DNA of 7,819 nt from the IMG/VR virus record IMGVR_UViG_2547132252_000009; one strand, written 5' to 3'. Below, in pieces: positions 2,165 to 5,261 of the stretch. Made by a program: the position numbers and the translations under genes. Source of the DNA: a virus (taxonomy: Duplodnaviria; Heunggongvirae; Uroviricota; Caudoviricetes). Every line of letters starts with the position of its first letter. Position 1 is the first letter of the stretch. The notes under the pieces were generated by a model that saw only the letters and a program-made list of their open reading frames with translations, was not told where the DNA came from and ran no database searches.

Positions 2165-2916
2165 CACCTGCTGCACAGCGCCCGAATCGGCTTCCGGTGT
2201 CGTGCCTGCTGGCTGACCAGGATTGACGGTCTGAACATCCCCTGCCTGGTTCGTGGTGTTTTTTTGCCATGAACCATAGTGTTTTTGTCCTGTTCCTGTT
2301 CTTTCTCCTGCTCCTGTTCCTGTTCTTGGCTTCGAAGCCCCTTAAAAGCCCCTTCGAAGCCCCTTACCGAATTTCGGCTATTATTCCGCCTCACATCCAG
2401 ATGGAAATCCGTTTTATATCTGTCGTAAAACACTGACAGAAAAGCGTTTTCAGGTAATGATGCATACTCATTCCTGACACCTGCACAACGGTTATCGCCA
2501 GGCTTCAACGTTTCCCCAACCTGCCAGGCTGCCATTTCATGGACCCAGACCATCTCTGCATCATGGTCATAGCTACAAAAACCAGCTTCAACAGCCCTTT
2601 TAAGCCCCTTTGAAGCCCCTTCCAGACCAAGCCCGGTTTCATGAGCAAGGTATAAAACTGGCAGGTAATACAAACCCAGCATATTTGCGTGAGGGGATGT
2701 CATCAGGTAAAAAGCAACAACTTGCGCTTCTGCACCCGCCTTTCTAAGTTCTCTCCCCGTTTCTCCCAGCCAGAATCGCGGAGAAACTTTTGCGTAATCA
2801 CGCATGGCTACCTCATCTGGTGCCGAACCTTCCTCCGGATATAATCTGTGGTTCCCAATCGACAGAACCAGAGGAGGTTCGACATGTATTTTTTGAAAAG
2901 CCTTTATCAGGCTCAT
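2164..2916 (-). CDS. Putative phage replication initiator (O-like replisome organizer), N-terminal domain plus (EQ)n linker; possibly the 5' part of a frameshifted initiator-DnaT fusion
   Basis: 250-aa ORF with internal repeats GLEGASKGLKRA / GFEGAFKGLRS and an EQEQEQEKEQEQ linker. After the A7 run the tail is arginine-rich and junk-like. Alternative start ATG at 2805 with GAGG 5 nt upstream (MRDYAKV...); ATG at 2916 has no clear SD. Confidence 0.6.
   Translation of the reverse strand: MSLIKAFQKIHVEPPLVLSIGNHRLYPEEGSAPDEVAMRDYAKVSPRFWLGETGRELRKAGAEAQVVAFYLMTSPHANMLGLYYLPVLYLAHETGLGLEGASKGLKRAVEAGFCSYDHDAEMVWVHEMAAWQVGETLKPGDNRCAGVRNEYASLPENAFLSVFYDRYKTDFHLDVRRNNSRNSVRGFEGAFKGLRSQEQEQEQEKEQEQDKNTMVHGKKTPRTRQGMFRPSILVSQQARHRKPIRALCSR
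2285..2366. repeat. Imperfect hexamer repeat (TCCTGT)n at 2285-2326 followed by three tandem 11-bp iteron-like units T(C/A)(G/A)AAGCCCCT at 2332-2364
   Basis: Read directly: tcctgt tcctgt tctttc tcctgc tcctgt tcctgt, then tcgaagcccct taaaagcccct tcgaagcccct, at helical-turn spacing. Confidence 0.7.
2593..2623. repeat. Second cluster of three tandem 10-11 bp AGCCCCTT-type repeats
   Basis: agccctttta agcccctttga agccccttcc; same core as the 2332-2364 cluster, about 260 bp away, inside the initiator ORF. Confidence 0.6.
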
Positions 2917-3339
2917 GTATTAAATGTTGCAGCAACAAACCGCTGGTGTAACAGCCCCGAAATGCTCCCGGATTACAGAGCCTGGCTGCGCGCCGAAACA
3001 TACCTTCGTCTCGACATATTGATTAGCGAACTTCAAAAAGAGACTGCATCCATTCATAACCTTCAGGGTATCGACGCTGTTCGCATTCTGGTATCGCGCC
3101 ATAGTGCTCTCTCAATAATTGAAGTGCGTCATCTCTCTTTTTCTGAACTGATTTTCTTGCTTCAACCAGCTCTGGAATCAGCGAATATCCCGCCGGAAGT
3201 GATCCAATACCCACCTCATGTTGACGAGCAGTTACAAGATGTGCCATACAACCAGCGTGCTGGATTGACTCCCTGCTCAGAGGCTGAATGGGATCACTCT
3301 CTGCTGAAGAAATACCAAGATTTGTATAATCCTCAATAA
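2884..3339 (+). CDS. Alternative hypothetical ORF (151 aa) antisense to 3023..3532
   Basis: ATG 2884 preceded by perfect AGGAGG at 2872-2877 with 6-nt spacing. Protein is Leu/Ser/Ile-rich, as antisense ORFs often are; orientation is opposite to the surrounding operon. Confidence 0.25.
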   Translation: MYFLKSLYQAHVLNVAATNRWCNSPEMLPDYRAWLRAETYLRLDILISELQKETASIHNLQGIDAVRILVSRHSALSIIEVRHLSFSELIFLLQPALESANIPPEVIQYPPHVDEQLQDVPYNQRAGLTPCSEAEWDHSLLKKYQDLYNPQ

Positions 3340-3532
3340 GCCCGGCACACGCTTCTGCATCAGCCAGCTTTATTCTGGTTTCCTTGCGCTGTTCTCTGGC
3401 TGACAAACGCCAGAGCAGCGCATTAGCTTTATGTATCAACCACTCTGCCAGCTCCACATCAGATAAACCGCCACGCCAGATGTGCGGACTGTTTTCGTAA
3501 ACGCTCAGTGTCAATTTTTTGTCATTACTCAT
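3023..3532 (-). CDS. Hypothetical protein (169 aa) between the ydaT-like gene and the replication initiator
   Basis: ORF in operon orientation with ydaS/ydaT/initiator; balanced charged/hydrophobic composition. Start taken as ATG 3532 (MSNDKKLTLSV...), weak SD; the track's GTG start at 3583 would overlap ydaT. Competes with the antisense plus-strand ORF 2884..3339. Confidence 0.5.
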   Translation of the reverse strand: MSNDKKLTLSVYENSPHIWRGGLSDVELAEWLIHKANALLWRLSAREQRKETRIKLADAEACAGLIEDYTNLGISSAESDPIQPLSRESIQHAGCMAHLVTARQHEVGIGSLPAGYSLIPELVEARKSVQKKRDDALQLLREHYGAIPECEQRRYPEGYEWMQSLFEVR

Positions 3533-3545
3533 ATTTATTACCCAA

Positions 3546-3971
3546 TTAATGCACAGCCAGAGTGTTTCCTGCCGGGCCACCACGATTCATCTGATCGAAC
3601 AGAACGATCGCTGATGCAACGAAATCATCAATATCTTTCACCAGCCGTTCCTTCGTCTCTACCAACTCCCGAAAATAAGCGGAACTGTGGCTGCGCATTC
3701 GGGCCACCAGCGGAGGCGGCATCGCTTTTTCGATCGCTGGTAACAACGCCTGAATTTTTTTAACCGCATCAGGAGTGTCTTTCTCCACCCAGCGGAAAAT
3801 TTTCTGAGTATTGCGAGCCATGGCTTCCGGATGGCTGTCGTCATACAGTTCCGGGAACGTCATTCCCAGCTCGAAATACGCTTTGGTAATTTTCGCAGCC
3901 GGTACTTTTTCGCCGTCCGGATGCGCCCAGGCATTCATCGCCATGCGGATGTGTTCATGCTTGATTTTCAT
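3546..3971 (-). CDS. ydaT: YdaT-like protein (CII-like regulator / putative toxin family)
   Basis: 141 aa starting MKIKHEHIR..., recalled as the Rac YdaT N-terminus; sits directly downstream of the Cro-like gene with a 17-bp overlap; GGAG 9 nt upstream of the ATG. Confidence 0.75.
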   Translation of the reverse strand: MKIKHEHIRMAMNAWAHPDGEKVPAAKITKAYFELGMTFPELYDDSHPEAMARNTQKIFRWVEKDTPDAVKKIQALLPAIEKAMPPPLVARMRSHSSAYFRELVETKERLVKDIDDFVASAIVLFDQMNRGGPAGNTLAVH

Positions 3972-4227
3972 GAATCAACTCCGGCGCATTTGATGTGTTA
4001 ACCTTACATCCAACAGGTAAACCGTCGGTTGGGTTAGGATAAATATCTGGGCGGATTTCATGCGGGGTAACTTCCCACTTCATTAGTTGGCATAACGGAA
4101 TTACCTGCTTTGGGGGAACGCCAAAGCTAAACCATTGCCAAACAGTCTGTTGAGCGACCCCCATATAACGACCTATTTCAGCCTGAGTGTATTTCTGCCT
4201 AATTTTTTCGCGAGTGCTATCTAGCAT
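3955..4227 (-). CDS. ydaS: Cro-like HTH regulator (YdaS-like)
   Basis: 90 aa; HTH motif AEIGRYMGVAQQTVWQW; ATG 4227 preceded by GGAGG (5-nt spacer); divergent from the repressor gene across the operator region. Confidence 0.8.
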   Translation of the reverse strand: MLDSTREKIRQKYTQAEIGRYMGVAQQTVWQWFSFGVPPKQVIPLCQLMKWEVTPHEIRPDIYPNPTDGLPVGCKVNTSNAPELIHENQA

Positions 4228-4260
4228 TTTGCCCTCCTCTAAAAACTATAAGCAAAGCCT

Positions 4261-4299
4261 ACAATAAAAAACTGTATGCAATCAACAGTTTTTTATTGT
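4261..4299. promoter_or_regulatory. Operator: perfect 15-bp inverted repeat ACAATAAAAAACTGT / ACAGTTTTTTATTGT with 9-bp spacer, in the divergent ydaS / repressor intergenic region
   Basis: 4261-4275 is the exact reverse complement of 4285-4299. A further ACAG/CTGT mini-palindrome lies at 4306-4328. Candidate -10 TATAGT for ydaS (minus strand, 4243-4248) and TAAAAT (4324-4329) for the repressor gene. Confidence 0.7.
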
Positions 4300-4335
4300 G
4301 ATGCTTTTAACAGTATTTACCTGTAAAATTGAATA

Positions 4336-4737
4336 ATGATGAGCGCCCTAGAAGTATCTATGTACAGAATCAGCAAGCTTCTTCAGGAAACTGGATGGAG
4401 CCAGGCTGAGCTTGCCCGTAGAATTGGTGTGACACAACAAACTGTTCAACAATGGGTCAGCGGTAAGGCTACACCTAAAGCCTCAAGTTTGGATAAACTG
4501 GTTGAGGTTTCAGGGCATCCATTGCATTGGTTTTTATTGCCTCCTGAAGAGTGTGAGCAAATTTTCACCCCTGACACGATGAAAATTGGTCCTCGCCAAC
4601 GCGAACTGCTCCAAGCTTTTAGTGCGTTTCCTGAGGAAGACCAAGAAAAAATGCTTCAAGAAATCAAAGACAAGAAAAAATCAATGGAAGAAACCATTGC
4701 TAGGTGGCTGGCGGCACAAAAAAGCCGCCGGGCGTGA
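4336..4737 (+). CDS. paaR2: CI-like XRE-family repressor, PaaR2-like
   Basis: 133 aa; HTH SQAELARRIGVTQQTVQQWVSG; first gene of a three-gene operon with a small antitoxin and a ParE toxin; divergent from the Cro-like gene. Confidence 0.8.
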   Translation: MMSALEVSMYRISKLLQETGWSQAELARRIGVTQQTVQQWVSGKATPKASSLDKLVEVSGHPLHWFLLPPEECEQIFTPDTMKIGPRQRELLQAFSAFPEEDQEKMLQEIKDKKKSMEETIARWLAAQKSRRA

Positions 4738-4764
4738 CCACAGTACAAGAAGAGGAGTTATGCC

Positions 4765-4956
4765 ATGGGTACAGCCCTTTCTCCGATAGTTTCAGAATTC
4801 GAAACTACCGAACAAGAAAACAGTTACAACGAATGGTTGCGCACTAAAGTAACGTCAAGCCTTGCAGACACTCGCCCCGCAATTCCACATGACGAGGTAA
4901 TGGCTGAAATGGAAAATCTTATTGCTCAAATTGCTGTAACTAACAAGAGCGAGTAA
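4765..4956 (+). CDS. paaA2: Small acidic antitoxin, PaaA2-like
   Basis: 63 aa, acidic; GAGGAG 6 nt upstream of ATG 4765; its stop overlaps the toxin start (TAATG). Confidence 0.8.
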   Translation: MGTALSPIVSEFETTEQENSYNEWLRTKVTSSLADTRPAIPHDEVMAEMENLIAQIAVTNKSE

Positions 4957-5243
4957 TGTTACCCATTTTATGGCTACCGTCTGCTCGCGATGATTTGCGC
5001 CAGATCATAACTTACATCGCCAAGGAGAACCCACCGGCAGCACGTAGACTAAAAATACGCATTGAAACATCGGTATTACCTCTATCTGAGCATCCGTACT
5101 TATATCCACCAAGCGAACGGGTTTCTGGATTGAGAGAGATCGTGACCCACCCTAACTACATAATCCTGTACAGAGTAGCTGCTTCAAGCATTGAGATTGT
5201 AAGCGTGACACATTCTCGGCGACAATTTCCCTTCTCTATCTGA
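4956..5243 (+). CDS. parE2: ParE/RelE-superfamily toxin, ParE2-like
   Basis: 95 aa; ParE-like N-terminus MLPILWLPSARDDLRQIITYIAKENPPAARRL; translationally coupled to the upstream antitoxin. Confidence 0.85.
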   Translation: MLPILWLPSARDDLRQIITYIAKENPPAARRLKIRIETSVLPLSEHPYLYPPSERVSGLREIVTHPNYIILYRVAASSIEIVSVTHSRRQFPFSI

Positions 5244-5261
5244 GTTGAACAATTTTCATAC

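Follow-up and report, generated by a model that had tools for sequence, protein, structure and literature searches.

The question raised by this locus is which of two open reading frames (ORFs), lying on opposite strands of the same DNA and overlapping by 317 nucleotides (nt), is a real gene. The pair lies in a 7,819-nt stretch of DNA (IMG/VR record IMGVR_UViG_2547132252_000009, hereafter the window) that comes from a lambdoid prophage of Escherichia coli O157:H7, namely CP-933M according to the EDL933 protein name. The minus-strand ORF (3023-3532) encodes 169 amino acids (aa) and the plus-strand ORF (2884-3339) encodes 151 aa, coordinates that were all correct in the original prediction, which was made from the letters of the window and treated the two ORFs as alternatives, whichever might be real. 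The databases have made the same choice in opposite ways: the minus ORF was called in the original EDL933 annotation (AAG55469.1, Q8X4I3) and by PHROGs (phrog_8304), whereas the plus ORF was called in Sakai (ECs1072), by NCBIfam and by RefSeq, whose Prokaryotic Genome Annotation Pipeline (PGAP) annotates the plus ORF only. Both ORFs are annotated in one Serratia fonticola GenBank assembly. These calls disagree, and both are right: our comparison of diverged loci shows that both ORFs are real convergent genes, and that both frames constrain the 317 nt they share (3023-3339; codons 47-151 of the plus gene, 65-169 of the minus gene). Thus, the two O157:H7 reference annotations, as well as PHROGs and NCBIfam, each keep one gene of the pair, and an annotation that forbids overlaps therefore misses one real protein family.

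Homology and profile searches were positive for both translations, with full-length homologues down to about 45-50% identity in Salmonella and further ones, at about 30%, when profiles were used; neither are both ORFs without homologues, nor is only one of them conserved. To these loci we applied a count of substitutions by codon phase, with diverged loci gathered from IMG/VR and public assemblies (lineages and loci carry the prefix L below); the main periodicity set held 45 pairs among 10 lineages, and a set of five phylogenetically independent pairs was used for Fisher tests. In the plus-only zone (2884-3022, 46 codons, with the motif PDYRAWLRAETYLRLD), periodicity follows the plus frame only, the differing sites at codon positions 1/2/3 being.467/.350/.653, and the ratio of nonsynonymous to synonymous divergence (dN/dS, or omega; NG86 method) is 0.2-0.4 with saturated dS. 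In the minus-only zone (3340-3532, 64 codons or 193 nt, with the motif SPHIWRGGLSDVELAEWL), it follows the minus frame only (.413/.335/.597), with an omega of 0.12-0.4 (NG86) and dS at or near saturation. The plus gene does not reach into this zone, whose coding signal therefore cannot be its shadow. Its motif is found again in the partners of very distant cassettes (L132, L133, L041b and L196). An either/or choice between the two ORFs is thus contradicted by homologues at about 30-50% identity together with frame-specific purifying selection in the parts that each gene has to itself.

In the overlap, the two frames have their codon position 1 at the same base, and the periodicity is flattened, to.400/.391/.489 in the plus frame and.388/.479/.414 in the minus frame. 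Fewer four-fold degenerate sites differ there than in the unique zones: 46% versus 72% in the plus-only zone for the plus frame, and 36.5% versus 54% in the minus-only zone for the minus frame, a drop that has the same direction in 44 of the 45 pairs in each frame. Among the independent pairs, 45 of 61 plus four-fold sites differ in the unique zone versus 45 of 105 in the overlap (p=1.8e-4), and the fraction of differing third positions is.632 versus.454 in the plus frame (p=2.5e-6) and.545 versus.340 in the minus frame (p=2e-8). When rates are estimated by NG86, dS falls from saturation in the unique zones to 0.3-0.8 in the overlap, and dN is not lower. That only dS falls argues against the overlap being simply a younger segment. 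Within it, the plus frame is under stronger constraint than the minus frame.

Each frame is also conserved beyond what the other frame explains. We used a cross-frame null in which one protein is held fixed and its synonymous codons are drawn independently. Given the plus proteins, the expected identity in the minus frame is.13-.23 and the observed one.21-.49 (z=2.3-7.1); given the minus proteins, the expected identity in the plus frame is.11-.22 and the observed one.27-.62 (z=4.2-11.2), and the identity lies above the null in 16 of 16 pairs in both directions. The mere openness of the frames is equally hard to obtain in this way. When the synonymous codons of the plus protein in the window were resampled, the minus frame stayed open in 0.1% of the samples (mean 4.6 stops), and in the reciprocal resampling the plus frame stayed open in 2.8%; these low rates indicate that the pair is no chance shadow. 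Per lineage, 1.2-4.6 stops are expected in the partner frame, yet both frames are open in nine of nine clades, for which Fisher's method gives combined p values of 6e-7 (minus frame) and 2e-7 (plus frame). The longest overlap, the 392 nt of a Salmonella allele (L135), is open in both frames as well, with P=0.004 and 0.001. Furthermore, 11 single-base changes possible in the window would be silent in the plus frame and create a stop in the minus frame, so that it is not mutational protection that keeps the minus frame open. The two intact opposite-strand ORFs share far more than the 90 nt that mark a non-trivial antisense overlap, and synonymous rates, cross-frame identity and ORF maintenance all support the conservation of each frame.

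The plus gene begins with a signal that the original prediction had read directly from the letters, an AGGAGG Shine-Dalgarno (SD) sequence at 2872-2877 followed by 6 nt (TTCGAC) and an ATG at 2884. Its product passes the NCBIfam model NF033230 (ECs1072 family phage-associated protein) with 105.7 bits against a curated cutoff of 70 (E=2e-30), residues 4-145 aligning with positions 3-141 of the 142 in the profile, and also belongs to phrog_5286. The ORF is intact in every related locus examined, including those with a broken minus gene, and the family keeps a length near 150 aa down to 19% identity. The plus protein is predicted to be one compact all-helical domain that extends across both the plus-only and the overlap zones (AlphaFold2 model with a predicted local distance difference test score, pLDDT, of 92.5 over both zones, and a predicted template modelling score of 0.87). 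Against this confident model, the composition of the ORF, which had been given as a reason for doubt, carries little weight; moreover, of the Leu, Ser and Ile richness noted earlier only that of Leu (14.6%) is borne out, Ser (7.9%) and Ile (6.6%) not being notable.

The minus ORF runs for 169 aa from its ATG, or for 186 aa if a GTG extension to 3583 is counted, and starts 13 nt past the stop codon of the ydaT-like gene, in the direction of the early lytic operon. It matches phrog_8304 over its full length (E=4.2e-120, 1-169 on 1-169 of 169), as do, for the family match, 15 of 15 members of our alignment A6; its homologues are 148-197 aa long and reach down to 31-35% identity. The ATG is preceded in the window by a weak purine tract only (TGGGTAATAAAT), so that the weak SD described before is correct for the window; however, it is not a general trait, since the start codon and an SD-like tract are kept across lineages and the tract is AGGAGG-like in others (L038 and L039). 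The minus protein is predicted to consist of a conserved 64-aa N-terminal module encoded outside the overlap and a helical, partly disordered tail encoded inside it, in which the motifs Y..LG(I/L)S, DPI.PLS.EAI and P.GY.L.P(E/D)L are conserved among the homologues. A 90%-identity cluster of the minus protein also holds 85-96-aa fragments that are N-termini of YdaT, some of them named "toxin YdaT family protein, partial", which is an artefact of clustering and naming. For the same reason, we rejected the name "Rha family transcriptional regulator, partial" as a clue to the minus protein, as such names belong to mis-clustered YdaT fragments.

The convergent pair is found in prophages of E. coli, Salmonella and Serratia, in an identical phase everywhere, and both genes are intact in 12 lineages plus L135 and L136. 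Of 5,426 complete E. coli genomes, 451 carry the 778 nt of the locus at an identity of 99% or more. The contexts include CI/Cro followed by the pair, YdaS-YdaT followed by the pair and the initiator, and a P2-like order in which Cox, a helix-turn-helix protein and Int precede the early operon; all contexts examined agree with the orientation described for the window, the minus gene being codirectional with the early lytic operon and the plus gene opposed to it. In the Rac prophage of E. coli K-12, ydaU follows ydaT after 12 nt, and 2806-3545 is therefore an insertion relative to Rac. The earlier statements that Rac-type modules have nothing at this place and that the pair is an accessory insertion thus hold, the latter in the form of a mobile cassette that occurs in different early-operon contexts. 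Base composition does not set the cassette apart from its surroundings. A tblastn search of 50,697 GenBank phages gave no match to either protein, a blastn search of the same kind gave only an 81-nt match outside both ORFs, scans of genome contigs gave no confirmed relatives, and a search with our alignment A5 gave no match.

The length of the overlap differs between lineages in a graded way, being 236-392 nt in 13 lineages besides the window. It is 62 nt in L132, whose plus protein is only 25% identical and whose partner has 88 aa (motif NGLSDAELIAFL); at most 134 nt in L133 (motif GDLSRKELIKWL); 236-239 nt in the paralogous pairs L196 and L041b; 257-269 nt in eight lineages; 317 nt in the window, L033 and L038; and 392 nt in L135, with a partner of 192 aa. 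This series, together with the confidently folded plus domain and the poorly predicted minus tail, suggests that the pairing is ancient and that overprinting probably made the overlap long, with the 3' end of the minus gene extended by stages into the plus gene. The series from 62 to 392 nt would allow such an extension to be reconstructed step by step. The paralogous cassette of L196 (5551-6184) occupies the same slot between YdaT and the initiator in another lambdoid prophage, with a 137-aa partner (motif GNLTPGELRDWI) and a 151-aa plus paralogue that overlap by 236 nt in the same phase, and the slot therefore exchanges cassette alleles. In a Salmonella prophage (L041, 4001-5250; also L042), two plus-family genes stand in tandem, and both have a separate copy of the leader described below in front of them: the first is without a partner, and the second, a diverged copy (4554-5009), has a convergent partner (4771-5250) with the motif DELAAWLL and an overlap of 239 nt.

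The plus gene is preceded by a leader of about 65 nt (2819-2883, plus strand) that is far more conserved than the coding sequence, with the consensus ttGGTGCCGAACCTTCC..CGG.ATA..CT...GGTTCC.ACA.C.AAGAACCGAAGGAGGTTCGAC-ATG; its SD is kept as (A)AGGAGGTTCGAC-ATG in all lineages. A sigma-70 promoter, followed by a 5' untranslated region, is predicted at 2817-2845, with a -35-like hexamer at 2817-2822 (CTGGTG in the window, TTGGTG in most lineages), a 17-nt spacer and the -10 hexamer TATAAT at 2840-2845, and these positions are kept across lineages and across different cargo genes. The leader can fold (dG -26.3 kcal/mol, z -2.8) with the -10 hexamer in a loop: an arm at 2824-2838 (CGAACCTTCCTCCGG), upstream of the predicted transcription start, is complementary to an arm at 2868-2881 that contains the SD (CCAGAGGAGGTTCG). 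Four alternating GAACC/GGTTC boxes make alternative pairings possible. The hairpin may mask the SD in transcripts that read into the gene from upstream, and so may insulate it from read-through in the manner of IS10, whose transposase is subject to fold-back inhibition, with read-through transcripts masking the ribosome-binding site. The plus gene recalls IS10 in that a segment upstream of its predicted start is complementary to the SD; however, changes in the 3' arm are uncompensated here, and the leader is portable and common to many unrelated cargo ORFs. Rfam models gave no match (E<=1) on 2500-4400.

In 49 of 80 IMG/VR loci (L137-L214), the leader (GGTGCCGAAC...GGAGGTTCGAC-ATG) precedes ORFs unrelated to the plus gene. 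This cargo includes a family of 97-99 aa starting with MKVQAVGLFWFRD or MSDQQKAVAFFCY, ORFs of 56-88 aa, and distant plus paralogues of 151-157 aa. The leader is present in 579 E. coli genomes, versus 464 with the cassette. Since it stands before unrelated ORFs and in more genomes than the cassette does, we regard the leader as a portable expression module. At one such locus (L138, 5168-5608), the leader and a 97-aa cargo gene lie directly upstream of a gene for a CI-like S24 repressor in the same direction, and a 117-aa ORF starting with MSEKIT runs antisense across the cargo gene. At the other end, the sole candidate found for an end of the plus-gene transcript is a weak terminator-like hairpin on the plus strand (3709-3726, AGCGGAGGCGGCATCGCT followed by TTTTCG), antisense inside the ydaT-like gene. 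A plus transcript that ended at this hairpin would cover the whole minus gene, together with its ribosome-binding site, in antisense.

This anatomy suggests how the two genes might be expressed. The minus gene would be transcribed and translated within the early lytic operon, from a PR-type or Pe-type promoter, and the plus gene would be transcribed against the operon from its own conserved promoter and leader and translated from its perfect SD. A repressed prophage would make the plus protein only. Once it is induced, strong transcription of the operon would silence the plus gene, both by interference between the convergent transcription units and by pairing of the two RNAs, and would yield the minus protein instead. 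We infer from this arrangement that expression of the two products may be mutually exclusive, plus in the lysogen and minus in lytic growth. Speculatively, the plus protein could be a factor of the prophage state, serving, for instance, in exclusion, in defence, or as a brake on leaky expression of the replication genes, and the minus protein could be its lytic-phase counterpart. A bolder version, to which we give a rather low probability, is a toggle between lysogeny and lysis, in which the two proteins are antagonists whose expression is made mutually exclusive by convergent transcription across the shared dual-coding segment, and the leader is a portable module, insulated from read-through, for antisense accessory genes (morons). 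If this were true, the overlap would be a selected regulatory device that also forces joint inheritance of both genes, and the leader would drive a whole class of antisense morons in enterobacterial prophages.

As to function, Pfam gave no match for either protein or for any family member, PADLOC models gave none at E<=1, sequence profiles of the Protein Data Bank (PDB) gave none for either protein, and Foldseek found no fold relative in BFVD. Neither protein has a transmembrane segment, the maximal 19-residue Kyte-Doolittle mean being 1.42 in the plus and 0.95 in the minus protein. For the superinfection-exclusion or defence role that the original prediction had suggested as possible, there is thus neither a PADLOC match nor a membrane-spanning segment. 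The open-access full text that we searched held no publication on this gene pair and no mention of WP_000273724; the sole literature mention found is that of ECs1072, listed as differentially expressed in Sakai cultures in a microarray table. Sense-strand values for the operon genes, in reads per kilobase per million mapped reads, are low. A 199-aa antisense phage-like protein of Salmonella SL1344 known from proteogenomics was considered and set aside, as its peptides occur in neither family and it is unrelated.

Taken as a whole, we consider it likely that 2806-3545 is a mobile cassette of two real convergent genes with a dual-coding overlap that arose by overprinting, and with opposed expression. 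Several observations weigh against this explanation or parts of it. In the overlap, the naive dN/dS of the minus frame is about 0.7-1.8; truncated or frameshifted minus genes stand beside an intact plus gene in L043/L044 and L037; the length of the minus protein varies between 148 and 197 aa, and its AlphaFold model reaches a pLDDT of only 64, with the last 20 residues below 50. On the side of expression, tables of ribosome profiling (Ribo-seq), transcription start site, translatome and proteomic data contained no entry that we could find for either gene, a consensus promoter scan of 2600-3800 found no promoter and only two weak terminator-like sites, and no compensatory substitutions in the leader hairpin were seen across lineages, 3' arm changes in L085, L086 and L090 being uncompensated. 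Some of these points have an explanation. The scan missed the predicted promoter at 2817-2845 because its -35 hexamer is weak. The naive omega is uninformative because the synonymous sites of the minus frame are position 2 of the plus frame; we therefore dropped it as a test, and selection on the minus tail rests on the depressed plus-synonymous rates, ORF maintenance and cross-frame identity. The broken minus genes next to intact plus genes mean that the plus gene can persist alone.

These observations give most room to the idea that the plus gene is fully real, whereas the minus gene encodes just a short protein of about 64-88 aa, with the remainder a tolerated, unselected read-through tail. 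Minus partners of 88 aa in L132 and 83 aa in L043/L044, the low pLDDT of the tail, the naive omega of about 1, the variable C-terminal ends and the residual plus-frame periodicity of the overlap would all be expected under it. An unselected tail, however, should have been cut by stops, and it is open in all nine clades and even over the 392 nt of L135; the minus stops are clustered, giving overlaps of 257-269 and 317 nt, the plus-synonymous sites are constrained in the overlap, the minus-frame identity is roughly twice the null, and motifs of the tail are conserved. We therefore think this idea unlikely. If the entire minus ORF were a shadow of the plus gene, as the plus-only annotation by PGAP and the weak minus SD in the window might suggest, the 193-nt zone outside the plus gene would hardly have its canonical minus-frame periodicity and low omega, nor would the start codon and SD-like tract be conserved or the N-terminal motif recur in the partners from cassettes with a plus-protein identity of just 19-25%; the chance of this being correct is very small. 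The converse, a plus ORF that is a chance antisense frame with a fortuitous SD, is effectively refuted. The original EDL933 annotation, phrog_8304 and the operon direction speak for the minus ORF, yet the plus ORF is the one that is intact everywhere, even where the minus gene is broken, and its own periodicity in the plus-only zone, its constant length to 19% identity, its confident model and its highly conserved leader, SD and ATG leave little to chance.

Finally, the low synonymous rate in the overlap might come from recent recombination, as lambdoid prophages are mosaic, or from an RNA or DNA element, instead of from dual coding. An argument for this also comes from the lineages with a broken minus gene (L043/L044 and L037), in which the synonymous divergence of the overlap is just as low (45-48% of four-fold sites in L043 and L037). 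In our view the minus gene was inactivated there only recently, and L037 fits such an explanation, being a near relative and recent derivative of the intact L039 and L135 alleles. Recombination would also not leave dN as high in the overlap as in the unique zones, the effect is present in 44 of 45 pairs and in both frames, ORF maintenance speaks independently for dual coding, Rfam models match no element there, and antisense complementarity as such needs no conservation of sequence. Accordingly, we hold this source of the signal to be highly improbable, and dual coding of the shared 317 nt is preferred.

Several antisense overlapping genes have been described in E. coli O157:H7, namely nog1/citC, asa, laoB, ano, pop and oloz0137/4542/5029, and the established non-trivial antisense overlaps of bacteria are few, mostly young and weakly constrained. 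As in these genes of enterohaemorrhagic E. coli (EHEC), one member of our pair is usually suppressed by annotation pipelines, and overprinting is the proposed origin. However, most of the EHEC examples are young, short ORFs of restricted taxonomic range that lie within a conserved mother gene, whereas both partners here are conserved families, found in a prophage, at about 30% identity across genera, with a convergent, partial overlap and 139-193 nt of coding sequence of their own, and selection on both frames is supported by comparative data; unlike the published EHEC cases, the pair is known here from sequence alone. The type of a mother gene with a young overprinted orphan is thus rejected, since E. 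coli, Salmonella and Serratia all carry both partners, with identities of 30-50%. Identity with the three EDL933 overlapping genes of Graf et al. is rejected too, since those lie elsewhere, none of them in a phage region. Long antisense overlaps in Pseudomonas aeruginosa are argued by Kreitmeier et al. (PMC8850804) to be translated and under purifying selection. Those ORFs are embedded and evolutionarily novel, whereas this pair is convergent and partial, with older families and graded overlap lengths. On these comparative grounds, the pair is an unusually well-conserved antisense overlap, in which the either/or of the annotations is replaced by "both". Whether long antisense overlaps encode two functional bacterial proteins is still disputed, and the pair is a deeply conserved test case in a genetically tractable prophage of E. 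coli O157:H7; lying beside an immunity switch, with a leader common to many small prophage genes, the cassette is also a lead on prophage biology.

Convergent antisense transcription is familiar from lambdoid immunity regions, where oop faces cII and PRE faces cro, and from the interference between pR and pL in coliphage 186. The plus gene resembles lambda oop in being an antisense unit between a cII-like gene and the initiator that faces a PR-type operon, and in the regulatory effect expected of it, through transcriptional interference and RNA duplexes; however, oop is a short non-coding RNA, whereas the plus unit encodes a conserved 151-aa protein and has no Rfam match. As regards an oop-type antisense RNA proper, only the map position is analogous, and this class was rejected. 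In orientation, the plus gene is also like sieB of Rac, which lies on the strand opposite to kilR, ydaE, ydaF and ydaG and ends convergently against ydaF; sieB-type genes (Rac, lambda and P22) are expressed in the lysogen from a promoter presumed to be their own, as we presume for the plus gene. SieB, by contrast, is a membrane protein with a trivial 4-nt overlap, and neither protein here resembles it in transmembrane segments, sequence or fold. A SieB-like superinfection exclusion protein was thus rejected for lack of transmembrane helices and of a Pfam match. We also rejected a type II toxin-antitoxin pair, since the genes are convergent and not co-transcribed and neither family has a Pfam domain, and the known PADLOC defence systems, of which no model matched.

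The minus-strand genes around the pair follow the order of a CI/DicA-type switch and then an early operon. A YdaS/Cro-like gene (3955-4227) is followed by the YdaT/CII-like gene that flanks the pair upstream (3546-3971; Pfam YdaT_toxin 1.2e-9, phrog_163 CII-like 4e-46), by the minus gene, by the replication initiator gene that flanks it downstream (1715-2805, starting at 2805; DnaD-like/O-like, phrog_1701 and phrog_3729 on two consecutive ORFs), and by a gene for a DnaC-like ATPase (962-1708). According to the ORF map and the RefSeq annotation, no translation covers the 217 nt from the stop of the minus gene to the start of the initiator on the operon strand (2806-3022), a stretch that lies opposite the plus leader and the plus-only zone. 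Unless antitermination acts on the early operon, this gap in its mRNA could expose the replication genes to Rho-dependent polarity. The initiator is split into ORFs at 2164-2805/2916 and 1715-2176 by a 1-nt deletion in a run of T near 2258, where the window is one T short; it is a single 363-aa coding sequence in NZ_AP018488, and the frameshift is either a pseudogene of the source strain or a sequencing error. The CI/DicA-like repressor gene (4336-4737) is directly followed by a RelB/RelE-type toxin-antitoxin pair (4765-5243) encoded on the same strand. At the other end of the window, the region of a DUF1627-like gene contains a direct repeat of about 192 nt (261-452 and 485-675, 97-100% identical, spaced by 223-224 nt), of which NZ_AP018488 has one copy only.

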